Below are positions 22,249 to 64,000 of a DNA stretch of 64,000 nt, piece by piece. Source of the DNA: Nostoc sp. DedSLP01 (GTDB lineage: Bacteria > Cyanobacteriota > Cyanobacteriia > Cyanobacteriales > Nostocaceae); assembly GCA_034530875.2 (NCBI GenBank), contig JAVRCJ020000016.1, positions 96,001 through 160,000 on the forward strand, read 5' to 3'. How positions within the stretch are numbered: position 1 is the stretch's first letter; each line of letters starts with the position of its first letter. The notes under the pieces were generated by a model. That model did not search any database. It was not told the DNA's origin and saw nothing but the letters and a program-made list of their open reading frames with translations. Position numbers and translations under genes: made by a program.

Positions 22249-22361
22249 CGAAGGCAGGAGGCAGGGGGCAGAAGGCAGGAGGTCGTTTTTGTAACGAGAA
22301 TTCATACCCCATTCCAAGAACTTTGGACGAAGTACGGTTTTTGACCCGATTGATTCGATAA
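22245..22361 (+). mobile_element. Dispersed repeat family A, copy 1
   Basis: TTAACGAAGGCAGGAGG...GACCCGATTG.TTCGATAA; near-identical to 23104-23206, 42099-42206 and 56547-56697. Confidence 0.8.
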
Positions 22362-23103: not shown

Positions 23104-23206
23104 TTAACGAAGGCAGGAGGCAGGAGGCCGTTTTTGTAACGAGGATTTATACCCCGTTCCAAAAACTTTGGACGAAGTACGGTTTTAGACCCGATTGTTT
23201 CGATAA
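23104..23206 (+). mobile_element. Dispersed repeat family A, copy 2
   Basis: Direct repeat of 22245-22361. Confidence 0.8.
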
Positions 23207-41761: not shown

Positions 41762-42098
41762 TATTTTTCTCCTGAAAGGTTGTTGGTTTTCTGGGGTGTT
41801 TTTATTAACTAACTTGTGTTTGTTAGTTACATGATTACTATATAGATACCAATTTAAAAAGTCAATACTTTATTCGATAGTTTTTACAAATTTTTCAGTC
41901 AAAAATTCAAGTCAAAATTGATTATTTTAATTCTATAAATGCAGCAAAAAATAAAGCAAAAAAACAAATTTTCCTGCCCATGAAGGCTTACAGCAATTTA
42001 AATTAATTTTTAATTACCTAAATTTAGCTTTTTCTTTAATAACTTAAAAATCAGCTAATATTGAAATTATTTTAATTAACTAATACCAACATACAAAA

Positions 42099-42206
42099 TT
42101 ATCGAAACAATCGGGTCTAAAACCTTGCATTTTAAGGCGAAAAGTTTTGAGAACGGGGTATAAATCCTCGTAACAAAAACGGCCTCCTGCCTCCTGCCTT
42201 CGTTAA
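42099..42206 (-). mobile_element. Dispersed repeat family A, copy 3 (inverted)
   Basis: TTATCGAAACAATCGGGTCTAAAACC...CCTCCTGCCTTCGTTAA. Confidence 0.8.
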
Positions 42207-49408: not shown

Positions 49409-49600
49409 TCATCGCTCAGAAACTACAATGTACAATTCGTAGCAAAGATTTAGCATCTCGCTTTGGTGGTGATGAGATTATAATTTTGCTGGAAGATATT
49501 GCAGGCATTAAAGAAGCAATTTCAGTTGCTCAACGAATCTTAGTAAAATTACAATCTCCATTCATACTGAACGACTCGGAAGTTTTTTTAACCACTAGCA
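49408..49600 (+). pseudogene. Internal GGDEF-domain fragment
   Basis: IIAQKLQCTIRSKDLASRFGGDEIIILLEDIAGIKEAISVAQRILVKLQSPFILNDSEVFLTTS; no start codon. Confidence 0.85.
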
Positions 49601-51463
49601 GCGTTCCCTATTTTCTACTGTAAAAGGATTATCGATAGCCACATAAATCGAGTGAGTGGGAAGAGAACTGTGCATTTCATCAATGTCGTGAAAGCGGGAG
49701 ATGAGATTGGCTTTGCAACGCCACTGCGGTTGGCGAAGTTGATGCAGGAGTTTTGAGCTATCTGGCTCTATATGTGCGTATGTATCTAAAGTAGTTCTGA
49801 CTTCTGCTAAAAGTACTCGTTCATCCACCAAACCAGCGACACCGAAGGCATTAATCAGCCCCAACAAATGATTGTTGAAAAAGTAATAACCCAGGCGTTC
49901 GTCAGCAGCAACGGCATTTTTAGACACCGTATGGCTTCTGTTAGTAAAGCCAGGGAGGATGCCATCTAAATGTTCCCGAAAAGCCGGGTGACAGTAATAA
50001 TCTTGATTATCGCGGAAAAAGAAGCGGTAAGGATAACCATCTTGGAGTTGCAAAACACTATTTTGTTGATGCGCTTCTAGCCCTATGCCATAAGTAAAGT
50101 AAAGCCAAAGAATCGGCTCTAGGGAAATTTTCAGGTAACGGCAAAACCAATCCCGGCTAACTTCACTTGTGGGGCGTTGTTCGCGTTCTGCTAGTAATTT
50201 GATAATATTTGTCAAGCGCGAACCATCATAAAACATTGCATCTTGACATAGAGATATTAAACAAGTGGCATCAGGAGCAGGATTGTTTGGGAAAACATTT
50301 TCTCGTAATAGAGAAGCGAAAGCACTACTGGGTTCGCCGTCTATTTTCAAGGTGATGTAGGCAGGCTCTCGAATAATATTAAATTGTGGGAAGCGATCGC
50401 GCAATTCCTGACCGACTTGAGTATTCAATAATTGATAGAGTTCTACCGCCCGTTTTAACTCTTTATAAGTAATAGCCCGTATCGAGTTAGTAATCTTGAC
50501 GTTCAAAGAGAGTTTGAGCATGAACGCTGCATCAGGATGATAAACTGTACGAATTGAAGAAGTAGGCATAAAAGCTCGCCCTTGTAACCCCAAATCTTCC
50601 AGCAATCCTTGATTCAATAACTGCTGCACTGCTGGTTGACGCCGCACAAAATTTGCCTGCCAAGGATGCATCGGTAACAAAGCATATTCATCTGTGCGGC
50701 AATAATTAATCTTGAAGTTTTCATCCACTTGAGTATCCGCCAACAGTTCTGCTTTAATCAGTTCTGTAGCTGTTTGTGGCAATGCTGAATTTGACTCCAC
50801 TATCGACTGATGGGCGCGAAAGTAGTGCAGAGGAAAACAACCTTTCAATTCTGGAGAATAAATAGCTAATTCATTCTCAGCAAATTCTGGACGGCTTTTT
50901 GGTGTTGGGTGTAAAGGATGCCCAAAAACTAGGGCTTGTTCGGTTTCAATAAAATTACTTTTAAAAGCATAAAGAATATCTGTATCCTGTCGCCGCTGCC
51001 GCACAAACTGTTCGATATTGCCACAGCTTTCTACTACTCGCCGCAGCAATTCCTCCTGGTGTCCATTATTACCATCAACCAGGGCTAACTCTTTTATCAG
51101 TAGAGTAACTAAAGTGATGCAATCAACTTCTAAAATAGCAGTTTTATCCGCTGGTTGATAATAAATTGGAAAGTAAAATAAATGCCGTCCAGTTAGCGAA
51201 TAATAGCGTAAACCAGCCAATATTTGTATATTTTGGTGCTCTAAGTAACAACGTATTAATACTTCAGTTTTAGTACGATTAAATACTTCATTTATACCAT
51301 CGCCGATCGCTTCAGTATTGGCTTTGATAATTTTGCCCGTACCAGTTTCTCGCAGGTAACAATTGAAAAAGCTTTGGATTGTTGCTTGTTCGGCAATTTC
51401 TTTGTCAGTGCGATTTATAGTCAGTTGTGACGTTGCAGTGGTAATAATGGTTTGCTGTATCAT
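49595..51463 (-). CDS. IucA/IucC-family NRPS-independent siderophore (NIS) synthetase
   Basis: EQALVFGHPLHPTPKSR, PMHPWQ, TSSIRT, KLSLNVKITNS, EAHQQN, FRD. Confidence 0.92.
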   Translation of the reverse strand: MIQQTIITTATSQLTINRTDKEIAEQATIQSFFNCYLRETGTGKIIKANTEAIGDGINEVFNRTKTEVLIRCYLEHQNIQILAGLRYYSLTGRHLFYFPIYYQPADKTAILEVDCITLVTLLIKELALVDGNNGHQEELLRRVVESCGNIEQFVRQRRQDTDILYAFKSNFIETEQALVFGHPLHPTPKSRPEFAENELAIYSPELKGCFPLHYFRAHQSIVESNSALPQTATELIKAELLADTQVDENFKINYCRTDEYALLPMHPWQANFVRRQPAVQQLLNQGLLEDLGLQGRAFMPTSSIRTVYHPDAAFMLKLSLNVKITNSIRAITYKELKRAVELYQLLNTQVGQELRDRFPQFNIIREPAYITLKIDGEPSSAFASLLRENVFPNNPAPDATCLISLCQDAMFYDGSRLTNIIKLLAEREQRPTSEVSRDWFCRYLKISLEPILWLYFTYGIGLEAHQQNSVLQLQDGYPYRFFFRDNQDYYCHPAFREHLDGILPGFTNRSHTVSKNAVAADERLGYYFFNNHLLGLINAFGVAGLVDERVLLAEVRTTLDTYAHIEPDSSKLLHQLRQPQWRCKANLISRFHDIDEMHSSLPTHSIYVAIDNPFTVENRERC

Positions 51464-51679
51464 TGGGTTTTTAGGTCTAAAGATTGAGTATTTCTCAGTA
51501 AATGACTAATACCAATTGAAAAATATTCGCGACAAATATATTCTGATACAGAATTATCGCTTTGCAAACCAAGATTTGAAGGGGTAAAGGGAAAGGGAAA
51601 GGGAAAAGGGAAAAGGGGAATGGGCATTGCTGATTCTCCCCCTGCCCCCTAGTTCCCATTCCCCAATCGCCAGTCACCT

Positions 51680-54600
51680 TTACACAGCTCCTCCATCCTG
51701 CTGCGATCGCAGTTGCGTTTCTGGCTGAGTTGCAGGCAAAGTTCTATGGCCAAATTCTGAAGTTCCATTTGGAGACTCTGGGGGATTTGAGCCTCCACGA
51801 CGGCCGCGAGAAAATATAGTCTCAGCCAAGGTTTTAATCAGAATGTAGAGAATTGGCACTAAGAACAAACTCAAGAACGTTGAAACCAGCAGTCCCCCAA
51901 ACAAGGCTGTACCTAAAGACCAACGGCTACTTGCTCCAGCTCCTTCAGAAATCACCAAGGGCAAAAATCCTAACAGCGCTGCAAAGGAAGTCATTAAAAT
52001 CGGTCGCAAACGTTCTTGTCCGGCTTTTACTGCGGCGCGGGTATAGCTCATGCCTCGCTCGTGCAGTTGATTGGCAAATTCCACGACTAGAATCGCGTTC
52101 TTGGCGGCTAGACCAATTAAGGTTACCAAACCTACTTGGCAATAAATATCATCTACTACCTTGGGAAACAGACTGCCAGCCATGAAAATATTCGATCGCA
52201 ACCAAATCGCTGTCATTGCTCCCAACACTGCCAGGGGAACTGTCAGCAAAATAATAATTGGGTCAACGTAACTTTCATATTGAGCCGCCAGTACTAAAAA
52301 TACAATAGCGATCGCTAAAGCAAAAATCAGTCCGGTAGCTCCTCCAGATGTCTTCTCTTGCAGATAAGTCCCCGTCCACTCGTAACCAAATCCCTGGGGT
52401 AATACCTCTGCGGCTACTTCCTCCATCGCTTTAATCGCCTGTCCGGAACTCGCACCAGGAGCCGGAGCGCCTTGGACTTTAATTGAGCGATACAAGTTAT
52501 AATGCGAGATTGTCTTTGGCCCTATAAAGGGAGTCACTTTCACCAGACTGCTCAAGGGGATCATCGCCCCAGTAGACGAGCGAACATATAACTTGCCAAT
52601 ATCATCGGGATTTGAACGGTAAACTCCATCTGCTTGCACGTATACTCGGTATTGTCGCTGTCCTTGGACAAAGTTATTCACGTATTGCGACCCCAAGTAA
52701 GATTGCAATGCCCCAAAGATATCATTAATTTCGACATTGAGAGCTTTGGCTTCGTTGCGGTTTACCTGGATTTCAAATTGCGGCGTATTGGCGGTGAATT
52801 GGGTAAAAACTCGTTGCAGAACGGGCTTTTGATTTGCTGCGGCAATGAACTTTTGAGTGACATCAACCAAAGTTTGAATCGGCGCGCTGCCCGTGCGGTC
52901 TTGGATAATAAACTCAAAACCACCCGTAGTACTTAATCCTCTCACTGGCGGAGCATTTACAGCGATCGCTCTAGCTTCGGTAATCCCAGACAGCTTTTTG
53001 TTGAGCCTTTGCAAGATGCCATAAACAGAATGAGATGCTTCGGTTCTTTCTTTCCAAGGTTTCAGGTTCGCAAAGGCAATACCCAAATTAGAAGCATTGC
53101 CATCAAAACCAAAACCGCTAATCATAAAACTAGCTCTCACTTCCGGAGCTGCTGTCACTTCCTTAGCAACCCGTTCCATCACCGATTCCGTGTATTTCAA
53201 AGAAACTCCATCAGGCCCCTGGACAATTACAAAGAAGTACCCTTGGTCTTCCTCTGGAATAAATCCTGTAGGCACTGTTTTGTACATGAAAACCGTTGCC
53301 AGTATACCAGCGATGAAAACTCCAATCACAACTGCCTTTATATGGGTAAGGAAGCTGACAAACCTCACATATCGGCGCGTGAACCAGCTAAATCCCCGAT
53401 TAAACAGCCCAAAAAACCAGCCCAAAGGCCCCCGTGGAGTTCGAGCAGGGCGCATGAGAATTGCTGCCATACTGGGAGAGAAGGTTAAAGCATTGAAAGT
53501 CGAAATCCCAATAGAACAAGCAATGGTCAACGCAAACTGCTTGTAAACAATCCCAGTCGTACCCGGAATAAATGCAACGGGAATGAATACCGCCATCAGT
53601 ACAAGCGAAGTAGCAATGACTGCCCCCGTCAACTCTTTCATAGCTTCTACGGCTGCGTCAAACGGCTTCATACCTTGTTCGAGTTTGACTGCAACAGCTT
53701 CCACCACAATGATGGCATCATCGACGACAATACCGATCGCTAGAACGAAACCAAATAAGGTCAGTGTATTAATTTGAAATCCTAGAACCAAAAGAGCCGC
53801 ACACGTCCCAATCAAAGAAACGGGGATCGCAACAGTAGGAATGATTGTGGTGCGCCAATCTTGCAAGAAAACAAAGATTACTAACACCACCAGTGCGATC
53901 GCTTCAACCAGCGTGTGCAGAACTTCTTCTAAGGAAATTTCCACAAACGGAGTGGTATCAAATGCTAACTGTGCTTTGAGTCCTGGCGGAAAATTCTTCG
54001 ATAGGATTTCAATTTGTTCTTCAACAGCATGGGCAACTTGTAAGGCATTACTACCAGGAAGTTGATATATCCCTAAACCAACAGCAGGCTTGGGATCTTT
54101 TCCTGGAATGGTAAATTTGGCATCAGCAAGATAGCTTTCTGCTCCTAGTTCAACTCGACCGACATCTTTAACTTTAACTAAGGTGTTAGCAGTGCCACCT
54201 TGCCCCACTTTTAACACCATCTCCTCAAATTCAGCAGCATCTTTGAATCGGCTGGTTGCCTTTAAAGCAAATTCAAAGCTTTGATTATCTGGGGCTGGTT
54301 CCTTGCCAATTGCCCCTGCGCCCACCTGAATATTCTGTTCTTGCAGCGCAGTTGTCACATCTTGAGGAGTTAGTTGATGTTGAGCAAGTTTGTTGGGATC
54401 GAGCCAGAGACGCATTGCATATTTGCGTTCTCCAAAAATTCTAGAACTGCCTACACCAGGAATGCGTTTAATTTGGTCGAGGATGAATAAGTCAACATAG
54501 TTACTAATAAAAATGTTGTCATATTCATTATTTTCTGAGTAAAAACCATAGACGAGCAGCAGACTAGTTGATGCTGTTTCAACAGTTACACCCGTTCTTT

Positions 54601-54970
54601 GAACAATATCCGGTAATTGAGATTCAGAGAGAGCTTCTTTATTTTGAACGTTTACTTGAGCAATATCGCTATTAACACTAGTTGGGAAGGAAACAGTTAT
54701 ATTGCTCGAACCATCATTACCTGTATTAGAAGAGATGTAAGATACATTTTTAACGCCATTAATTTGGCGCTCGATAATATTAGTAACAGTGCTTTCTGTT
54801 GTTTGAGCATCTGCACCAATATTATTAGAACTAACGTTGATTTGCACCGGAGCTAGATCCGGTAGCTGAGAAATCGGCAGCACAGGAATACAAATACTTC
54901 CCAGCAGCAAAATGATAAATGTACAGACGGTCGTCAGAACTGGACGCCTGATGAAAGTTTTGACAAACAT
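51680..54970 (-). CDS. RND efflux permease (AcrB/HAE1 family)
   Basis: FIRRPV, AMRLWLDP, GIVVDDAIIVVE, KNAILVVEFA, RLRPILMTS; start ATG 54970. Confidence 0.95.
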   Translation of the reverse strand: MFVKTFIRRPVLTTVCTFIILLLGSICIPVLPISQLPDLAPVQINVSSNNIGADAQTTESTVTNIIERQINGVKNVSYISSNTGNDGSSNITVSFPTSVNSDIAQVNVQNKEALSESQLPDIVQRTGVTVETASTSLLLVYGFYSENNEYDNIFISNYVDLFILDQIKRIPGVGSSRIFGERKYAMRLWLDPNKLAQHQLTPQDVTTALQEQNIQVGAGAIGKEPAPDNQSFEFALKATSRFKDAAEFEEMVLKVGQGGTANTLVKVKDVGRVELGAESYLADAKFTIPGKDPKPAVGLGIYQLPGSNALQVAHAVEEQIEILSKNFPPGLKAQLAFDTTPFVEISLEEVLHTLVEAIALVVLVIFVFLQDWRTTIIPTVAIPVSLIGTCAALLVLGFQINTLTLFGFVLAIGIVVDDAIIVVEAVAVKLEQGMKPFDAAVEAMKELTGAVIATSLVLMAVFIPVAFIPGTTGIVYKQFALTIACSIGISTFNALTFSPSMAAILMRPARTPRGPLGWFFGLFNRGFSWFTRRYVRFVSFLTHIKAVVIGVFIAGILATVFMYKTVPTGFIPEEDQGYFFVIVQGPDGVSLKYTESVMERVAKEVTAAPEVRASFMISGFGFDGNASNLGIAFANLKPWKERTEASHSVYGILQRLNKKLSGITEARAIAVNAPPVRGLSTTGGFEFIIQDRTGSAPIQTLVDVTQKFIAAANQKPVLQRVFTQFTANTPQFEIQVNRNEAKALNVEINDIFGALQSYLGSQYVNNFVQGQRQYRVYVQADGVYRSNPDDIGKLYVRSSTGAMIPLSSLVKVTPFIGPKTISHYNLYRSIKVQGAPAPGASSGQAIKAMEEVAAEVLPQGFGYEWTGTYLQEKTSGGATGLIFALAIAIVFLVLAAQYESYVDPIIILLTVPLAVLGAMTAIWLRSNIFMAGSLFPKVVDDIYCQVGLVTLIGLAAKNAILVVEFANQLHERGMSYTRAAVKAGQERLRPILMTSFAALLGFLPLVISEGAGASSRWSLGTALFGGLLVSTFLSLFLVPILYILIKTLAETIFSRGRRGGSNPPESPNGTSEFGHRTLPATQPETQLRSQQDGGAV

Positions 54971-54974
54971 AAGA

Positions 54975-55030
54975 CTGGGGGCTGGTGATTGGGGGCTGGG
55001 GACTGGTGACTGGTGACTGGTGACTGGTGA
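54975..55030. repeat. Heptamer short tandem repeats (STRR-like)
   Basis: (GACTGGT)n and GGGGCTG units. Confidence 0.8.
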
Positions 55031-55247
55031 ATAAGGAGTGGGGAGTAGAAAGTAGAAAATAAGTTGCAAGGCATCTTTCCCCAGACCTTTATACCTAAAG
55101 CCTCTTTCAATGCCCAGTCGCCAATCCCCAGTCCCCAGTCGCTAATCCCTAATTTCCAGCCCATTAAAATTTTTTATCGCAAACTGCCTCAAAAGTCCAA
55201 GATATATTGCTATAACCAAAAGGAATAGATAAAAATTACCAAACAGC

Positions 55248-56156
55248 ATGGATGCAGATTTACGGTTGCTTCGTTACTTTGTTGCGGTGGCACAAGAGTT
55301 GAACTTCACCCGTGCTGCTGAACAGTTATATATTTCACAACCAGCATTGTCTAAGCAAATTCGCCAACTAGAGCGAGAATTGGGCATTGAATTACTGCGC
55401 CGTAATAGTCGGGAAGTAAAACTGACTGCTGCTGGTGAAGCATTGTTGCCTTTAGCCCAAGGACTAATCCAGGATTGGCAGTTTACGTTATTAAAGCTGC
55501 GAGAAGTAGCGGCAAGGGAAACGCAGACATTACGCGTTGGTTTTGTTTGCAGGATTGGCAGTGAATTAACGAAATCTATTCTTTCACAGTTTCAAGCCCT
55601 ACAACCAGGGTGGAAGGTAGCAATTCGTTTCTTTGAGTTCTCAGATCCTACGGCTGGGCTACTCTCTGGCAATACTGATGTTGCTTTATTACGGTTGCCA
55701 GTTCCCAAACAAGAAAAAGTATTCACCGAAATCTTATTGGTTGAACCAAGATGGGTGGCTCTACCATCAGAACATCCACTCGCGCAACACCAAGTTTTAC
55801 AGATAGCTGATTTGGTTAACGAACCATTTATTACTTTGCCTGCTGAAACAGGAATATGGCGAGATCACTGGCTAGCAAAGAATGAGCGTGGTGGGCATCC
55901 AATTGTCTTTGGCACGGAAGTCAACAATATTAATGAGGCAATGGAAGCGGTGATTAACAATCAAGGAATAGCCCTAGTCTCAGAAACCACGGCACAAATT
56001 TATGCTTTGTCAGGACAAACTTTCCGCCGAGTTCAGGATGTCAGTCCTAGTGTCCTAGCTGTGGCGTGGCGGCGAGATTCTGCAAATAGTGTAGTTAAAG
56101 ACTTTGTACAAGCTTGCCTTGATGTGACTCAACATCTCCGGCCTCTGAATTGTTAA
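55248..56156 (+). CDS. LysR-type transcriptional regulator
   Basis: LRYFVAVAQELNFTRAAEQLYISQPALSKQIRQLE; divergent from the RND gene. Confidence 0.95.
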   Translation: MDADLRLLRYFVAVAQELNFTRAAEQLYISQPALSKQIRQLERELGIELLRRNSREVKLTAAGEALLPLAQGLIQDWQFTLLKLREVAARETQTLRVGFVCRIGSELTKSILSQFQALQPGWKVAIRFFEFSDPTAGLLSGNTDVALLRLPVPKQEKVFTEILLVEPRWVALPSEHPLAQHQVLQIADLVNEPFITLPAETGIWRDHWLAKNERGGHPIVFGTEVNNINEAMEAVINNQGIALVSETTAQIYALSGQTFRRVQDVSPSVLAVAWRRDSANSVVKDFVQACLDVTQHLRPLNC

Positions 56157-56228
56157 AGGAGGCAGGAGGCAGGAGGCAGGGGGCAGGAGCCAGGGGGCAG
56201 GAGGCAGGAGGCAGGGGGCAGGGGGCAG
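56157..56228 (+). repeat. (GGCAGGA/GGCAGGG)n heptamer array
   Basis: About 10 units; inverted counterpart at 56626-56692. Confidence 0.85.
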
Positions 56229-56546
56229 TTTCAATGAAATAATTTTCACAAACATGTATGAAAAAGGAATATCCCTTACACCCTTATTATGAGGATTGTA
56301 ATTTTGAATTTTGAATTCCCCAAACGGGTTGACTTGCTTTTTGAATTTGTATGTGATAATTTCTGCTTTAGTAATTCTACTGTTTTCCGACCGACTTATC
56401 GGATTTAGAGAAACTAAGCTGTCGAGCATCTAACGCAGCACATTTTTTTTCTTTAGACAGTCCAAATTCGAAAGTTTTTTGGCTATGAGTGCCAGTCACT
56501 CATGGCGAAATGATGCTATTGGGTTTGCTCTTGTGCTTGGTAAATC

Positions 56547-56697
56547 TATCGAAACAATCGGATCTAAAACCGTACTTCGTCCAAAGTTTTTGGAACGGGG
56601 TATAAATCCTCGTTACAAAAACGGCCTCCTGCCTCCTGCCTCCTGCCCCCTGCCCCCTGCCTCCTGCCCCCTGCCTCCTGCCCCCTGCCTCCGTTAA
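56547..56697 (-). mobile_element. Dispersed repeat family A, copy 4, with an expanded heptamer tract
   Basis: TATCGAAACAATCGGATCTAAAACC...(CCTGCCT/CCTGCCC)n CCGTTAA. Confidence 0.8.
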
Positions 56698-56715
56698 CCT
56701 TCAGGAATTTGATAC

Positions 56716-56919
56716 ATGACCAAAGTTTTGATTCTCGATGCCAACCAACAACCTTTATACCCAGTACGTATCAGCCGTGCTAGGCTGCTGTTGTCACAAG
56801 GGCAAGCTAGTGTATTCCAGCGATATCCGTTCACTATCATCCTCAAGGAGTCGCTTTCCCATTTAAAACTTGAGCAACTTGGCTTTAAAATTCACCCTGA
56901 TGTCAAAAATAAAAAGTAA
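56716..56919 (+). CDS. Stand-alone RRXRR/PLMP domain (IscB N-terminus-like), 67 aa
   Basis: MTKVLILDANQQPLYP...RARLLLSQGQASVFQRYPFTIILK...FKIHP; AGGA RBS; no RuvC/HNH follows. Confidence 0.75.
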   Translation: MTKVLILDANQQPLYPVRISRARLLLSQGQASVFQRYPFTIILKESLSHLKLEQLGFKIHPDVKNKK

Positions 56920-57014
56920 AAGTTTTATATGCAAACTTGTGAGCGATTCCCAATGGTAACTTTATTTTTGCTGTAACGTACTATTACTACGATCGCCAAA
57001 AATAAAAAAGTTAG

Positions 57015-57102
57015 TAAGTAGGTTGGCACAACAAAACGAAAGTATTTAAATAAAGATTAACTTAAGCTAAAGCTATGAGGAATATTTACGCCAACTTACT
57101 TA
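57015..57102. mobile_element. MITE-like element, TAAGTAG family
   Basis: TAAGTAGGTTGGC ... GCCAACTTACTTA. Confidence 0.65.
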
Positions 57103-57120
57103 GATTAATCAGGAATATAG

Positions 57121-57792
57121 ATGATTAATGATACTATCTTAGAACCATTGCCAGAAGACCAATGGTTTATTGAAAGCCAAGAACTGCGCTCTTTTATAGC
57201 AACAGTACGTGAAATTACTGCCAACACATCTGAAAATCGCACCCAAACCCTCGCTAAATTAGAACCCTATTTTCAAGAGCTACTTGCCCAACAGCAATGG
57301 TTGCCCGAAAAGTTTACCCGAGTCAACCCGGAAAGTAAAATGGGCGGTGGTATCGGTCAATGGCTACTTTATCGGGCTAAAGACCGTTCTTTGTCAGTTT
57401 TTAGCTTGGTAATTCCTCCAGGTTCAACCACTCCCGTCCACGACCATTTAGCTTGGGGATTGATTGGTTTATATAAAGGCAATCAAGAAGAAACAGTCTA
57501 TCGGCGTGTAGATAACGGCAATGCCGAAGGACATGCACAATTACAAATAACTGAAGTGCGATCGCTTGAAAGGGGGGATATTTACCGCCTCCTACCTCCA
57601 GATGGTGATATCCACGCTGTTAAAACCACATCCGAGAGTGAATCTGTATCGATTCATCTCCTGGGCAATGATACTGGTTGCGTCTGGCGTCACCAGTTCA
57701 TTCCAGAATCTCACAGCGTCAAATCTTTTCGTTCTGGATATTCTAATGCTCCCTGTAAAGAGGAGGAGGAAAAAGAATATGCCCAAGTATGA
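57121..57792 (+). CDS. Cysteine/thiol dioxygenase-like cupin
   Basis: TPVHDHLAWG, DIHAV, SIHLLG. Confidence 0.8.
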   Translation: MINDTILEPLPEDQWFIESQELRSFIATVREITANTSENRTQTLAKLEPYFQELLAQQQWLPEKFTRVNPESKMGGGIGQWLLYRAKDRSLSVFSLVIPPGSTTPVHDHLAWGLIGLYKGNQEETVYRRVDNGNAEGHAQLQITEVRSLERGDIYRLLPPDGDIHAVKTTSESESVSIHLLGNDTGCVWRHQFIPESHSVKSFRSGYSNAPCKEEEEKEYAQV

Positions 57793-58540
57793 AAGACCGC
57801 AACCCCCCGTATTCGAGCGAGTTGAAGACGAACGCCTGCACCGCAAGCAACGCCTAGCCGCCGCCCTGCGGTTGTTTGGTCGCCTTGGCTTTTGTGAGGG
57901 GGTCGCGGGTCATATTACAGTCCGCGATCCTGAGTTTACAGACCATTTTTGGATCAATCCACCGGGGACATACTTCGGTCATATCAAAGTTTCTGACCTG
58001 GTTTTGGTTAATAAAGATGGTGAAGTGGCCAAAGGCGACGCTGAGGTAAATCGAGCCAGTTTGACCATCCATTGTGAAATTCATGAGGCTCGACCTGATG
58101 TCATTGCAACTGCACACGCCCATTCAATTTATGGCAAAGCCTGGTCGAGTTTGGGGCGTCTCCTCGACCCCTTGACTCAAGATTCTTGTGCTTTTTACGA
58201 AGACCATGCATTATTTGAAGACCATACAGATAGTACATTAGATGCCTCACAAAGTAAGCGATTTGCTGAAGCTTTGGGCCCGAATAAAGCCCTAATCCTG
58301 CGTAACCACGGCATTTTAACTGTGGGAAATACGGTGGATGAAGCTGCTTTTTGGTACATTAACCTAGAGCGATCGTGTCAAGCACAACTGTTAGCAGAAG
58401 CCGCAGGTAGACCTAGTATTATCAAACACGAAACAGCCCGTTTAACCCACAGCCAAGTGGGATCGCCCACAAGCGGCTGGTTCGGCTTCCAGCCACTTTA
58501 CGAAAGGATTGTGCGGGATGAACCAGATTTGCTCGATTAG
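57779..58540 (+). CDS. Class II aldolase/adducin family protein
   Basis: EGVAGHITVRDP, IH.EIHEARPDV..AHAHS, LRNHG; start MPKYERP. Confidence 0.9.
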   Translation: MPKYERPQPPVFERVEDERLHRKQRLAAALRLFGRLGFCEGVAGHITVRDPEFTDHFWINPPGTYFGHIKVSDLVLVNKDGEVAKGDAEVNRASLTIHCEIHEARPDVIATAHAHSIYGKAWSSLGRLLDPLTQDSCAFYEDHALFEDHTDSTLDASQSKRFAEALGPNKALILRNHGILTVGNTVDEAAFWYINLERSCQAQLLAEAAGRPSIIKHETARLTHSQVGSPTSGWFGFQPLYERIVRDEPDLLD

Positions 58541-58583
58541 TCATTAGTCATTAGTTATTAGTCATTAGTCATTAGTCCTTTGT
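58537..58583. repeat. (TTAGTCA)n heptamer tandem repeat
   Basis: About 6 units directly after the stop codon. Confidence 0.8.
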
Positions 58584-58641
58584 CTAAAACTAATTACTAA
58601 TAACTAATGCCCCATGATGCTTATGAATTAGGAGATTAATT

Positions 58642-59463
58642 ATGACTAATGCTAGAGAATTATTGCGATCGCGTTACGGCGAAATTCCTTTCAATGCCGA
58701 AATTGAATGGAATGATTCTCTGACATCGCTATTATCTCACCGTTCAATTCGTTCTTATCTATCCGACCCTTTACCAGCGGGAACTCTGGAGTTATTAGTT
58801 GCAGCGGCCCAATCTGCATCTACTTCCTCAAATTTGCAAACCTGGAGTGTGGTAGCGGTCGAAAATCAAGAACGCAAAGATGAGTTATCAAAACTGGCGG
58901 GAAATCAAGCACACATTAGACAAGCGCCTTTATTCTTAGTTTGGTTAGCAGATTTAGCACGCCTGGCTTACGTTGCTGACAGTCGCGGCATATCCCATGA
59001 CGGTTTGGATTATTTGGAAATGTTTGTCATGGCAACGGTTGATGCGACATTAGCAGCGCAAAATGCCACAGTAGCTGCTGAGTCCCTCGGTTTGGGAACG
59101 GTATATATCGGTGGAATCCGCAACCGCCCGGAAGAAGTAGCAGCAATCTTGAATTTGCCTTCTTCTGTGTATGCTGTGTTTGGGCTGTGTATCGGCTATC
59201 CGAATCCAGAGGCGAATGCAGCAATTAAGCCGCGCTTACCACAATCAGCTGTGTTGCACCGAGAAACTTATAATTTGGCAGAACAAGATGAAGCGATCGC
59301 TCATTACAATAACATCATCAAAGAGTTCTATACTGAACAACAGATGAACGTTGCTGGTGATTGGTCAGAACATTCATCTGGGAGGATTGCAACTGTCGAG
59401 TCATTGAGAGGACGCGATCGCTTGCGGCAAGTTCTAAATAATCTAGGCTTCAAGTTACTGTAA
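58642..59463 (+). CDS. NADPH-dependent flavin reductase/nitroreductase (NfsA/Frp family)
   Basis: HRSIRSY, SASTSSNLQ, YIGGIRN, KPRLP. Confidence 0.9.
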   Translation: MTNARELLRSRYGEIPFNAEIEWNDSLTSLLSHRSIRSYLSDPLPAGTLELLVAAAQSASTSSNLQTWSVVAVENQERKDELSKLAGNQAHIRQAPLFLVWLADLARLAYVADSRGISHDGLDYLEMFVMATVDATLAAQNATVAAESLGLGTVYIGGIRNRPEEVAAILNLPSSVYAVFGLCIGYPNPEANAAIKPRLPQSAVLHRETYNLAEQDEAIAHYNNIIKEFYTEQQMNVAGDWSEHSSGRIATVESLRGRDRLRQVLNNLGFKLL

Positions 59464-59481
59464 ACAATAAATATCAAAATT

Positions 59482-60270
59482 ATGGATTTGCAACTCCGTG
59501 GCAAAGTCGCCTTAATAACAGCTGCTAGTAAAGGTTTGGGCAAAGCTACAGCAAGGCAATTTGCCCGTGAGGGTGCAAAGGTTGCTATCTGCGCCCGCAG
59601 TGAGTTAGTTGACAAAGCTGCTGCGGAAATTACTAGCGAAACAGATACCGAAGTCCTATCTCTGCGCGCAGATGTCACCAATCAAGCAGATATTGAACGG
59701 GTGATTAATGCCACAGTAGATAAATTCGGCGGGTTGGATATCCTCGTTACTAACGCCGGAGGGCCACCCGCTGGTACTTTTGATGATATCGATTTAGCAA
59801 CTTGGGAAACTTCGCTTAATTTAACTTTGCTGAGTGCAGTTCGCTTGGTGAAATACGCTTTACCTCACTTGCGCCAATCTAGCGCACCAGCGATTCTAAC
59901 TATTACCTCAACCTCAACTAAACAACCAGTCCAAAACCTTGTATTATCGAATTCCATTCGGTTAGCGGTTATTGGTTTAACTAAAACTCTCAGCCAAGAA
60001 TTGGGTAGCGATAAAATTCGCGTCAACAGCATTTTACCAGGCTGGACATATACACAACGAGTAGAAGAATTAATCAACGCCCGAATTGCTAAAAGTGGTG
60101 AAACAAAAGAAGCAGCAATTTCTCAAATCAGCGCTACAGTTCCTTTAGGTCGTATGGGAACGCCAGAAGAGTTTGCGAATGTGGCAGTATTTTTGAGTTC
60201 GCCAGCAGCCTCATTTGTGAATGGAGTCATGCTACAAGTAGATGGCGGAACGGTTCAAGGAACGTTTTGA
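59482..60270 (+). CDS. SDR family oxidoreductase
   Basis: TAASKGLG, NAGGP, PLGRMG.PEE, VDGG. Confidence 0.9.
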   Translation: MDLQLRGKVALITAASKGLGKATARQFAREGAKVAICARSELVDKAAAEITSETDTEVLSLRADVTNQADIERVINATVDKFGGLDILVTNAGGPPAGTFDDIDLATWETSLNLTLLSAVRLVKYALPHLRQSSAPAILTITSTSTKQPVQNLVLSNSIRLAVIGLTKTLSQELGSDKIRVNSILPGWTYTQRVEELINARIAKSGETKEAAISQISATVPLGRMGTPEEFANVAVFLSSPAASFVNGVMLQVDGGTVQGTF

Positions 60271-60756
60271 GGTATTATCGAAACATTGAATTGTTCCTTG
60301 ACGATCGCCATCGTCAATCGCTATTTCCCTAAACTTCCCTTTCGTGTAATCTAAAATGACACTGTGCCAAAATTTTTGAGCGACTGTATTTGTCTTCATT
60401 TGATAAATCTCCCACCTACCGCAAAATCCATCGAAGATTTGAGAAGCAACTAACTTACCAATTCCTTGCCGCCTATATTTTCGCAAGATAAAAAACTCTG
60501 CCATAGAATACTGATTGCTGAGAATATATGTGAACTGGTTCACTAAAACAAATCCAGCTAGCTTACCGCTTACGCGTACAATGAAAGGATAGCGATCGCT
60601 TTCAATCCAGTAATAATCTAGATATGGGTATCCAAAATAACCATGTTCGTCCAGATCTTGGTCTGCAAACTCTGAAAAGTCATACTGATAAAGCTCCATC
60701 ATCCTTTGGATGAGTGGTTTGTCATCAATTGCAGCAGATAACACCTCTACATACAT
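60232..60756 (-). CDS. GNAT acetyltransferase
   Basis: EFFILRKYRRQGIG, NTVAQKFW. Confidence 0.85.
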   Translation of the reverse strand: MYVEVLSAAIDDKPLIQRMMELYQYDFSEFADQDLDEHGYFGYPYLDYYWIESDRYPFIVRVSGKLAGFVLVNQFTYILSNQYSMAEFFILRKYRRQGIGKLVASQIFDGFCGRWEIYQMKTNTVAQKFWHSVILDYTKGKFREIAIDDGDRQGTIQCFDNTSKRSLNRSAIYL

Positions 60757-61326
60757 AATCTATCAAAAACAACATTTCTTAATAGTATTTAAAATTAGCA
60801 ACATAAATGTCTATAGATTTCTCTTGGCGTCAGGATATCAAATGAAATACTCTATCTGCGATAATAACGGCAGTAGCTCAATTAGACTATTTTTGATGAA
60901 AAGATTTTAGATTTTGGATTGGAAATTGCCTGATGTATCGGGCTTAATCTGTCGCCATCGTTTTTCAAATTGTTATAAAACTATTTCCTTCTTAAAAACT
61001 GGAAACAAAATTTTATCTGATGTTTTGGCAGAAGTTGACACATATCCACAACTATGCATATATCTTTCAAACATTCTCTAAAGTACGGAGAAAGGAAAGA
61101 CTTTTTTGTTATCAACTTTCCTTTTACCTTTCCCCCTTCTTCATTTTTTTATCATTTTCCCTATAATGCTAATAAGGAAAATATTTCTAACAGTAATGCT
61201 TGACTAAAATGAAATTAAATTATAAATTTTTAAAGGTGAATATATGAAAATATTGTATTTTTAATTCCAACTGTGTATATTAAGTTCCACTCAAAAGCAC
61301 AATAGCAAAAATTCCGAGAAAACTCC

Positions 61327-62373
61327 ATGCACAACCACCAATTATTTAACGCTAACATCGAGAACGATCGCGTTCTTTTAACCCCCAATGAAATTAAATC
61401 AAGATTGCCATTAACTAAATCAGCAGAAGAAACAGTTTTAAGGTATAGAGAGGAAATAGAAGATATTTTGGATTTTCGCGATCGCCGAAAATTCATAGTA
61501 GTTGGCCCTTGTTCGATTCACGATCCGAAAGCAGCGATCGAATATTCCCAAAGATTGAAAGCCTTGGCAGAAAAAGTCCAAGATAAGCTGCTACTAATTA
61601 TGCGCGTCTACTTTGAAAAACCAAGAACAACCGTAGGCTGGAAAGGATTAATTAACGACCCAGAGATGGATGATTCTTTTCATGTAGAAAATGGCTTATT
61701 AATTGCCCGCCAGCTATTACTAGAAATTACAGAATTGGGGTTACCTGCTGGTACAGAAGCGCTAGATCCAATCATACCTCAATATATTAGCGAATTGATT
61801 ACATGGTCGGCGATCGGGGCACGTACCACCGAATCGCAAACTCATCGGGAAATGGCAAGTGGACTTTCTATGCCTGTGGGTTTTAAAAATGGCACCGACG
61901 GCAATATTCAGGTAGCTTTAAATGCTCTTCAATCAGCTAGAAACCCTCATAATTTTTTGGGAATTAACCAAAACGGACAAGTCAGCGTATTTCAAACCAA
62001 AGGTAATGCCTACGGTCATGTCATTTTAAGAGGTGGTAATCAGCCCAACTTTGATGCAGCAAGCGTCAACCTAGTGGAAAAGAAATTAAAAGAGGCAGGT
62101 TTACCACCAAGAATCGTTATTGATTGCAGCCACGGCAATACTAATAAAGACTACAAATTACAAGCTGCCGTCTTAGAAAATATTATTCAGCAAATATTGG
62201 ATGGCAATACATCAATCGTTGGTATGATGCTGGAATCAAATATATATGAAGGCAATCAACCAATTAGTGGGAAGAAGGAAGAATTAAAATATGGCGTTTC
62301 TGTAACTGACAAATGTATTAACTGGGAAGAAACAGAGAAAATTATTTTGGCTGCTTACGAAAAACTTAAGTAG
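61327..62373 (+). CDS. DAHP synthase, class I-alpha (AroF/G/H type)
   Basis: GPCSIHD, RVYFEKPRTTVGWKG, IGARTTESQTHRE, DCSHGN, SVTDKC. Confidence 0.95.
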   Translation: MHNHQLFNANIENDRVLLTPNEIKSRLPLTKSAEETVLRYREEIEDILDFRDRRKFIVVGPCSIHDPKAAIEYSQRLKALAEKVQDKLLLIMRVYFEKPRTTVGWKGLINDPEMDDSFHVENGLLIARQLLLEITELGLPAGTEALDPIIPQYISELITWSAIGARTTESQTHREMASGLSMPVGFKNGTDGNIQVALNALQSARNPHNFLGINQNGQVSVFQTKGNAYGHVILRGGNQPNFDAASVNLVEKKLKEAGLPPRIVIDCSHGNTNKDYKLQAAVLENIIQQILDGNTSIVGMMLESNIYEGNQPISGKKEELKYGVSVTDKCINWEETEKIILAAYEKLK

Positions 62374-62510
62374 CTAATTTGGAAGACTATAGGAATCATA
62401 TTTGATTTTTGAACAAAATTAAGTATTAGATTTCTTGCAGAAGTCGGGAAAAGGGTAAAGCGATAAGAAAAACCCTTTTCCTTTTACCTTTTACCCAAGA
62501 GTTCAAAATA

Positions 62511-63326
62511 TTATTGATGGGACAACGCGTCAAAACTTTGCTCTAAACGTATAATTTTTGGCTTCAATGAACCTGCTTCAACCAATAGAATACTTTGTTC
62601 TTGGAAGGGTACCCAATTTTGCTCAGACAAAGGTTCAGATGCAACAATAACTGCATTTGAATTATTTTCATCTTCATAAGACCAATACAAAGTAGGTGCT
62701 GGTGTATCATAGGCATACCTAACTGCTGCCATTGTTTGACCATCACTGACAATTATATTGGCACTAAATGTAGTATCGTATTTTTGAGCTAAATCAGTCA
62801 ATTTTTGCAGCGTGATACTTAGAGCTGACAAAAGATTACTATCTACAGATGACTGCCACGTTTCTACTAACAAAGCGAAAATGTGTTCTGAGTCTGTCAT
62901 ACCTTTAATCAAACGGTATGTTGAATCAGAAAGTCTATCACGTATTGGTCTATAGAGTGTTTGTTGAAAGCTCGATATTTCACCATTATGGACAAACAAA
63001 AGTTTTCCACTGCGGAAAGGTTGACAGTTACTAATGTCAAGCGATTCCCCGATTCCAGCTAGTCGGACATAGCCTACAGTGCAATTAGATTGTACATATT
63101 GGCTTAACTGTTGCAAATTTGTATCGTTCCACAGGGGAATAGTATTACGGTAAATAAATGATTTTCCGGCTTCATCGTACCAGCCTATACCAGCACCGTC
63201 TGCACACACCATTCCAGACATTAATTCTTGAGGGTTATAACTTTGTTTTTCCAGAGAATGTTCTTCTTGATACAATAATTTTTCTAGCCGAATAGCGTTG
63301 CCAAGGTAGCCAATTAATCTACACAT
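62511..63326 (-). CDS. Class II glutamine amidotransferase, EgtC-like
   Basis: N-terminal MCRL (Ntn Cys), ADG.GIGWY, NCQPF, HNG, TDSE, ASEPL. Confidence 0.8.
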   Translation of the reverse strand: MCRLIGYLGNAIRLEKLLYQEEHSLEKQSYNPQELMSGMVCADGAGIGWYDEAGKSFIYRNTIPLWNDTNLQQLSQYVQSNCTVGYVRLAGIGESLDISNCQPFRSGKLLFVHNGEISSFQQTLYRPIRDRLSDSTYRLIKGMTDSEHIFALLVETWQSSVDSNLLSALSITLQKLTDLAQKYDTTFSANIIVSDGQTMAAVRYAYDTPAPTLYWSYEDENNSNAVIVASEPLSEQNWVPFQEQSILLVEAGSLKPKIIRLEQSFDALSHQ

Positions 63327-63645
63327 AGAAAACAAAAATAATATAAAAATGAGCGAATTTTGTTACGAAGCCAATTTTAATTATCTAATTTTGACTTTTG
63401 TTAACTATTATTACTTTAGCAATGAATTTATATATTGTGTATGCTTGAACCATGACTAAAGTAATGGATGTGTTTATGACTTTAGTCAGAACATCTTTAT
63501 TCGGGACAAACAAGTGTCTGACTTTTGCAATCTATAACCTCAGAGTGATGTTTAATTTCAAGAATTGAGCGCTCCTTTCTTTGGGTCTTATTTATTAATA
63601 AGTAAAAGAAACACCAAGTATGTCATCTCAAGTTGAAGAATTTAC

Positions 63646-63750
63646 TATAGCAATCCTAAATGAGTTGCAAAATTAGTCATGAAGTAGGGAACAGAAAACA
63701 AGAACGTACAAATGTACTCTAGCTTTCACAAATGAAATAGGATTGCTATA
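63646..63750. mobile_element. MITE-like element, TATAGCAATCC ends
   Basis: TATAGCAATCCTA ... TAGGATTGCTATA, perfect 13-bp inverted ends. Confidence 0.8.
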
Positions 63751-63769
63751 CCTCGTAATTCAATTCAAA

Positions 63770-64000
63770 TTAAACAACGACAAAATTGCTGCTGGTTAAT
63801 GACAATCCAGCAGTAAGTAAAGCAAATTGTACCTTGGCGAACCCACCCGCACTACCATCAGAGTCAAAGAACAATGCACCTGTAGTTGAGTTATAAATAA
63901 ATCGCTGACTACTTGTGGTTGCAGATGTACCGATGGTAAATTGACTAGCTTTGAGTACGCCTAGCGATAAGTCGCCACCAAAACCGCTAGCTGATACCTG
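63770..64000 (-). CDS. C-terminus of an RTX-type secreted protein (continues beyond the window)
   Basis: QVSASGFGG...QRFIYNSTTGALFFDSDGS...VQFALL...NFVVV*. Confidence 0.85.
   Translation of the reverse strand, partial: QVSASGFGGDLSLGVLKASQFTIGTSATTSSQRFIYNSTTGALFFDSDGSAGGFAKVQFALLTAGLSLTSSNFVVV

Follow-up and report, generated by a model that had tools for sequence, protein, structure and literature searches.

Can the N-terminal domain of an RNA-guided nuclease persist as a host gene of its own? The question is raised by an open reading frame (ORF) of 67 amino acids (aa) in a stretch of 64,000 nucleotides (nt) from Nostoc sp. DedSLP01 (contig JAVRCJ020000016.1, positions 96,001 to 160,000; hereafter the window, to whose positions plain coordinates refer). 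A first-pass annotation had likened this ORF, which is preceded by a ribosome-binding motif, to the N-terminus of IscB, and had read it either as a domesticated, nuclease-free RNA-binding regulator or as transposon debris. We show that it codes for a genuine PLMP domain of IscB, set out the strong support for its being a domesticated host gene, and weigh what such a domain might do on its own. We refer to this PLMP-only ORF and its orthologs as the mini, and by genus and family we mean those of the host.

Identity, conservation and origin of the mini

The Pfam RRXRR model (PF14239) matches the mini with positions 1-58 of 174 (E 1e-12, 48.6 bits against a cut-off of 25), and the NCBIfam IscB model with positions 1-59 of 314, with a score far below its whole-protein cut-off. 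A profile built locally from 20 full-length Nostocaceae IscB proteins and run over six frames of 55000-61500 matches with its positions 1-65 only and detects no RuvC or HNH remains; likewise, no HNH domain is found by Pfam or this profile in or after the ORF, and the original claim that such remains are missing downstream is sustained. The DNA likeness to IscB loci extends from the ATG to near codon 65, with ~60% DNA identity over the ORF, and the protein is up to 54% identical to Nostocaceae IscB N-termini. The sequence KIHPD, which had been contrasted with the KIDPG of IscB, indeed occupies the position of K[ILV]DPG in 20 of 20 sampled IscB proteins. Structural searches with an AlphaFold model agree: the top ten Foldseek matches are PLMP domains of IscB or IsrB (root-mean-square deviation 0.7-2.4 Å), and VIA-align returns five matches at Z >=5, all to IscB/IsrB. 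The mini is hence, by Pfam RRXRR and by fold match, a genuine IscB PLMP domain. It shares the N-terminal PLMP sequence and fold with the IscB/IsrB OMEGA systems (PDB 8csz, 7utn, 9k30, 8dmb) but lacks the bridge helix, RuvC, HNH and the omega-RNA, and unlike mobile IscB/IsrB it is present in single copy, descends vertically and keeps a fixed site.

It is the sole RRXRR match in the host genome (99.8% complete). A search of the ESM Atlas returned RRXRR-type clusters only, and among 50% representatives the mini family forms a single cluster (P0006), ranked above many IscB fragments. Another candidate, P0059, is a spurious match to a repeat protein; the database protein P0056 has the first 41 mini residues fused to the C-terminal end of the dioxygenase and is apparently a deletion product. 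The column of the RuvC-I Asp holds Asp in 10 of 62 minis (ungapped count), a homodimer prediction scored 0.00, and the sparing use of Cys and Met was discarded as uninformative, IscB N-termini being equally poor in both. A Shine-Dalgarno-like motif precedes the start in only 15 of the 62 orthologs, although the one ascribed to the window's ORF is there.

Across the family, 79 of 301 genomes hold a mini match at E 1e-21 or better, at 81 places with 67-100% identity and open frames of 67-134 aa. By our own tally the carriers span 12 of 68 family genera. Named relatives belong to Nostoc, Desmonostoc, Anabaena, Trichormus, Cylindrospermum, Calothrix, Tolypothrix and Aulosira; Nostoc punctiforme PCC 73102 codes for a 69-aa ortholog (ACC79378.1). 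Below this set come one 72% fragment and then, among the matches listed, sequences of 42-54% identity, mostly in frames of ~420-450 aa. There is one mini place in 77 of the 79 carriers, and the second copies in the other two (L069 and L070) are broken and lie at a different site common to both. An order-wide search of 251 genomes, of which 13 belong to the family, yielded no member of the mini clade outside the family. In a tree over 62 columns only, 62 intact minis and 20 IscB N-termini, the latter picked from the best-scoring rows, split at a branch supported at 100/99.

Syntenic RRXRR-only ORFs under non-neutral evolution, which had been proposed as a check, are found. For the genus, 61 genomes were searched with the dioxygenase and loci were taken from the best 30, 29 of them from genomes other than the host's; in 27 of these 29 the mini lies directly upstream of the dioxygenase, at 85-94% identity. 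Outside the genus we examined 35 of the 43 carriers, of which 34 have an intact mini ORF of 64-93 aa and one a disturbed start. The ratio of nonsynonymous to synonymous substitutions (dN/dS; Nei-Gojobori on every pair, the pairs not being independent) is 0.080 (bootstrap 95% 0.04-0.13) at dS 0.37 for 28 genus orthologs, and 0.11 at dS 0.38, near the mini's synonymous distance, for the adjoining dioxygenase. Codons 2-45 of 34 orthologs outside the genus again give 0.080, with 64% of synonymous sites differing, near saturation, and identity is 0.91 across the mini coding sequence against 0.54 across the 100 nt upstream. An orthologous site, purifying selection, lost mobility and empty outgroup sites strongly support, at the level of sequence comparison, the view that the mini is a domesticated host gene, and we regard it as very probable that selection made the host retain the PLMP core of ~60 residues as a protein-coding gene.

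None of 11 loci from non-carrier genera has a mini, and in four of them the monooxygenase ends 39-81 nt before the dioxygenase; therefore the organosulfur operon described below probably predates the mini insertion, with the proviso that these dioxygenases, at 61-73% identity, may include paralogs. The way in which the mini arose is hinted at by the 22 of 62 minis that have at least 80 aa and a C-terminal tail. This tail best matches IscB residues ~373-392 of 427 (its mean score there is 19.9, that over all positions 1.5 +/- 3.7), with 44% of 440 pair alignments at IscB 360-400 and a best local score of 26.2, where 200 shuffles reach 24.6 at most; the profile-profile probability of tail against IscB is only ~5%. 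Derivation of the tail from a decayed RuvC-I was ruled out, as 5% of the 440 pair alignments fall at IscB 60-95. Judged by its position, the matching piece would be part of the TI domain (PMC9640706). Beside the dioxygenase the tail is unconstrained (dN/dS 1.8, with a wide interval), and in the window a decayed remnant of it, neither RuvC nor HNH, is separated from the mini ORF by an insertion plus a stop. We hence consider it rather likely, on these alignments, that the mini arose by internal deletion of a local IscB. In an ancestor of one group of Nostocaceae, an IS200/IS605-type iscB would have inserted into an organosulfur operon that was already there, with the gene for the SsuD-like monooxygenase on one side and that for the dioxygenase on the other, and lost its omega-RNA, and one in-frame internal deletion would probably have removed all that lay between PLMP and a short C-terminal piece.

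The loss of the omega-RNA, whose presence upstream had been implied, is borne out by several scans. An Rfam scan of 50000-64000 gave nothing credible, and the HEARO model (RF02033), which passes its cut-off at 17 of 20 full-length IscB control loci, has no match in the host genome at E up to 1, the proposed search upstream of the ORF included, and none in five mini ortholog loci; 15 of the 19 genus genomes (among 41) that lack a HEARO match are known mini carriers. An omega-RNA at the mini locus or in trans is ruled out by these scans of locus, genome and relatives. A retained terminal hairpin of the omega-RNA before the start codon was also considered and dropped, as the GYAAGGA-type motif accompanies 6 of 62 minis and, among IscB, 5 of 20, too thin a showing. 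Separately, weak, sub-threshold HEARO-like RNAs in three mini-alone genomes (L123, L124, L125) neighbour IscB-like frames that are diverged or broken; these frames score weakly on the local IscB profile, with a clear match in three of four loci.

The organosulfur operon and its operator

The mini is co-oriented with the four downstream genes listed in Table 1, as first described. No Pfam or NCBIfam model matches the dioxygenase, whose stop the aldolase start overlaps. In several genera the operon runs from a DszC/SfnB-like oxidoreductase through an SsuA-like binding protein and an SsuD-like monooxygenase to the mini, which is followed by the dioxygenase, the aldolase, a further SsuA, the nitroreductase and the short-chain dehydrogenase/reductase; this composition supports a role of the operon in organosulfur scavenging. 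The position of the mini at the head of the operon, as claimed in the first-pass annotation, holds in some lineages only, and in others it is internal.

Table 1. Features of the mini locus, by position in the window
Feature	Position	Strand	Details
Predicted sigma-70-type promoter	56334..56362	+	TTGCTT at 56334-56339, 17 nt, TG-preceded TAnnnT at 56357-56362
Predicted palindromic DNA operator	56376..56405		Includes TCCGA..TCGGA; just 3' of the promoter
Strong RNA hairpin in leader	56478..56510	+	-16.1 kcal/mol, z -4.6
Dispersed repeat, ~85 nt plus heptamer tandem tail	56546..56697		~20 nt before the start codon
AGGA ribosome-binding-like motif	56703..56706	+	9 nt before the ATG; from sequence
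PLMP-only mini-gene, 67 aa	56716..56919	+	ATG start; conserved core residues 1 to ~60
Decayed DNA remnant of a longer ancestral C-terminal tail	56979..57016	+	Alignable to the tail that orthologs of 83-90 aa carry in frame
Thiol dioxygenase-like cupin (3-mercaptopropionate/cysteine dioxygenase family)	57121..57792	+	PDB 3uss/4tlf, E 1e-24
Class II aldolase/adducin family protein (PRK06208)	57779..58540	+	415 bits, cut-off 255
NfsA-like nitroreductase / flavin reductase	58642..59463	+	PF00881; PRK10765 202.7 bits, below cut-off 223
Short-chain dehydrogenase/reductase	59482..60270	+	PF13561, E 4.5e-55

The gap between the mini stop and the dioxygenase is 0 in 4 of 28 genus loci and 201 nt in the window; in other genera the dioxygenase starts at +248 to +275, and the stop of long-form minis abuts or overlaps its start. 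Outside the genus 28 of 35 mini loci precede at least one operon gene, and in 7 of 35 the mini stands without operon enzymes in the examined stretch (~6 kb on each side, contig permitting). There its dN/dS is 0.11, and at loci that have lost the dioxygenase it is 0.12 (g55) and 0.11 (genus g29); this conservation of the mini in loci without enzyme genes supports its independence of the operon enzymes.

The non-coding stretch before the mini measures ~560 nt (56157-56715) rather than the ~300 nt first given, and contains the promoter, the operator and the dispersed repeat. Both promoter boxes and their spacing are conserved across 40 aligned upstream regions from several genera, and the arrangement TTGCTT-17-TAnnnT followed by a 30-bp palindrome recurs in 40 of 70 upstream regions (30 regions being only ~1-1.5 kb long); a stock consensus promoter scan did not list this promoter. 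Two RNA hairpins had been proposed here, and both inverted repeats lie where they were placed, but only that at 56478-56510 beats shuffled sequences. The other, TCCGA..TCGGA (z -1.2), was ruled out as an RNA hairpin in favour of a DNA operator by the palindrome matrix and its conserved alignment. The former, ATGAGTG..CACTCAT, does not fare well as an omega-RNA element: with up to four mismatches allowed, the genome has just the one copy, six close relatives show no aligned counterpart, and none turned up in the other loci compared.

Scanned with a matrix of the palindrome, the genome shows 35 sites above 16 bits, whereas five column-permuted controls give 0-4. The first training set included the window's own site and three mis-anchored rows; after retraining without them the window site scores 26.2 bits and the next in the window 2.7. 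In 10 regions selected from the top 45 sites for annotation, some with neighbours unrelated to sulfur, operator sites stand before monooxygenase genes and before ssuA, ssuC, ssuD and genes of tauD-like and dszC-like type, and the interval from cysE to an Rrf2-family gene holds two (examples are G000:C19:76798 and 76892, C6:4220-4383, C51:18393 and C22:73672). These predicted sites support the view that the operator outlines a sulfur-starvation regulon of the host genome (ssu, tauD-like, DszC-like, cysE and the Rrf2 gene), so that the thiol link first suggested is upheld and widened to organosulfur scavenging. CymR of Bacillus is an Rrf2-family sulfur regulator, and the likeness to Rrf2/CymR regulons, a palindrome just after the promoter that is common to sulfonate, taurine, cysteine and Rrf2 genes, suggests that the regulator of the operator is a CymR-like Rrf2 repressor; the Rrf2 protein encoded divergently from cysE scores 90.7 bits on the CymR model, below the cut-off of 195. 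We found no description of this operator in the literature searched; regulon databases, which were outside the scope of that search, may list it.

The operator is present within 5 kb in 26 of the 35 loci outside the genus. All seven enzyme-less mini loci have it 101-195 nt upstream (the training set included 5 of the 7 sites), and in some of these it may instead serve a divergent chrA-like or aldo-keto reductase gene. It also precedes genes where it was unexpected, among them a flavodoxin-like ORF (at C17:30345) and a gene of the CRP family (at C19:75737), and a paralogous SsuA-dioxygenase-aldolase operon without a mini (G000:C36:50084-52900, L097) has the same operator.

Readings of the function of a lone PLMP domain

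In the complexes of known structure, PLMP holds the terminal hairpins of the omega-RNA, mainly without sequence specificity (PMC9640706); it contacts the Shine-Dalgarno hairpin, for which the authors suggest a possible regulation of expression, resembles the N-terminal domain of IF3, and is braced in IsrB by RuvC and TI (PMC9581776). Going by the fold, we give an even chance to the proposal that the mini is a sulfur-starvation-induced, guide-free regulator that binds RNA hairpins. It would be transcribed from a promoter with a sulfur-regulon operator and, because this operator is common to the sulfur-scavenging regulon, would most likely be made on sulfur shortage, when an Rrf2/CymR-like repressor might release. 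With no guide, it would then play the ancestral part of PLMP: it would grip an RNA stem-loop close to a ribosome-binding site and thereby adjust how sulfur-regulon transcripts are translated or how stable they are; its target in many lineages would probably be the leader hairpin of its own operon. More tentatively, and with less confidence, we posit that PLMP was recruited alone, with no guide RNA, as a class of sulfur-starvation-induced RNA- or ribosome-binding regulators that act post-transcriptionally in the host and derive from OMEGA transposons through internal deletion; in these a new leader hairpin would replace the omega-RNA end, and they may also act in trans on further transcripts.

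The leader hairpin in question has 12 pairs and is found once each in 46 of the 301 genomes, all among the 79 carriers, with no occurrence of reversed-pattern controls; 96% of its cells pair, the variation being mostly G-U wobble. It was not found in the non-carrier loci examined and has no Rfam match. At L036:4263-4306 and 29 other loci a conserved 20-nt block precedes the hairpin and a U-rich run follows it. On the protein side, nearly all 62 minis retain K3, R23, R36, K44 and K58.

A number of observations weigh against such a regulator. The covariation of the leader hairpin is no better than in shuffles (128/500), with one two-sided change, and a single common origin accounts for its being found together with the mini. 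It is absent from the host genome, from the closest relative checked and from 14 of 15 g29 genomes, in which the mini stays conserved (dN/dS 0.11) all the same. The nine non-genus loci without the operator within 5 kb, all of g29, likewise conserve the mini, and therefore sulfur control is not universal. The net charge of residues 1-57 falls from +6.6 in IscB to +4.2 in minis, with basic positions 12, 27, 35 and 56 lost; RuvC and TI, the braces of PLMP in IsrB, are gone; and the AlphaFold model has only modest confidence (pLDDT 62.7). The mini is also lost or broken, usually with its promoter, in genus members L009, L031, L067, L068, L111 and L120, and is therefore not essential.

Survival without hairpin, operator or enzymes would fit with action on the ribosome or another protein, for instance as an IF3-N-like modulator of translation in sulfur shortage. 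Residues S20, S27, E53, L55 and G56, invariant or nearly so in minis and not part of the IscB consensus, could form a new interface for such a partner, and IF3-N chains come after IscB in both fold searches, if weakly (Foldseek E ~1, VIA Z 3.1). However, this likeness to IF3 is at chance level and inherited from PLMP, and we deem the reading unlikely.

The abutting or overlapping of long-form mini stops with the dioxygenase start would suit a cis-acting leader or spacer ORF, whose translation couples or attenuates the downstream genes while the released peptide matters little. Yet it is the amino acids, and not the frame alone, that are constrained over ~60 codons, the tail beside the dioxygenase is free to vary, the window has its 201-nt gap, and the next gene is convergent in L035, L037 and L059; a purely cis-acting ORF is thus improbable. 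The same placement inside the operon and coupling to the dioxygenase might point to an accessory subunit of an operon enzyme or transporter, which we take to be very improbable given the constraint on minis that lack the dioxygenase or all enzyme genes and the outgroup operons without a mini, even though paralogous enzymes elsewhere in those genomes remain potential partners.

As a decoy for the ends of omega-RNA, dampening IscB transposons, the mini would account for the scarcity of other IscB-like matches in carriers, at least 52 in 79 against at least 519 in 222 non-carriers, as counted among the best 20 or fewer candidates per genome. This contrast is confounded by kinship and by that manner of scoring; furthermore, the genome G018 has 13 HEARO matches beside an intact mini, most of the genus genomes without a HEARO match are themselves carriers, and a sulfur operator makes little sense for an anti-IscB role, leaving the decoy a highly improbable reading. 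Functionless debris, the other reading of the first-pass annotation, is scarcely credible and largely refuted: sequence databases abound in truncated IscB N-termini, the tail decays and several genomes have lost or broken the mini, but syntenic orthologs at one site in one copy, 34 of 35 frames open outside the genus, a single clade, empty outgroup sites and, following the truncation that the minis share, a dN/dS of 0.08 with synonymous divergence close to saturation all speak against it.

Precedents and surroundings

To our knowledge, the known domesticated relatives of IscB and TnpB (Cas9, Cas12 and TldR) all keep RNA-guided targeting. PLMP is the domain that Cas9 discarded; in the mini, unlike Cas9, Cas12 or TldR, the host kept PLMP and dropped the guide. 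The nearest precedent is TldR, which retains its guide: in the case of these nuclease-dead TnpB repressors (bioRxiv 10.1101/2023.11.30.569447), a transposon RNA-guided nuclease likewise became a host or phage regulator after losing catalysis and mobility, but TldR keeps most of the protein and the guide RNA and binds DNA, whereas the mini is one 60-residue domain of IscB. No TldR-type guide scaffold was found for the mini by the genome HEARO scan, and no bridge helix or RuvC lobe by the IscB profile at the locus. Nor did we find an account of a PLMP-only host gene in the literature searched, mostly titles and the starts of abstracts; the supplements of IscB surveys may list some. A natural stand-alone PLMP makes the proposal of translation control through a Shine-Dalgarno hairpin (PMC9581776) testable without the rest of the nuclease and in a culturable strain (N. 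punctiforme). The identity of the mini also corrects database records, as its orthologs are automatically labelled either 'RRXRR domain-containing protein' or 'HNH endonuclease', the latter wrongly.

The dispersed repeat before the window's mini has 83 blastn hits in the genome, 57 of them of at least 70 nt, and does not occur at the mini locus in six close relatives; other copies lie at ~23111-23205, 22253-22360 and 42096-42199 of the window, and it looks like a miniature mobile element. Upstream of the operon a LysR gene (55248-56156) is divergent from an RND efflux gene (51680-55069), and these two adjoin the operon in only part of the genus. Further upstream, a minus-strand ORF of 622 aa (49595-51463) codes for what we take, by likeness, to be an IucA/IucC siderophore synthetase.

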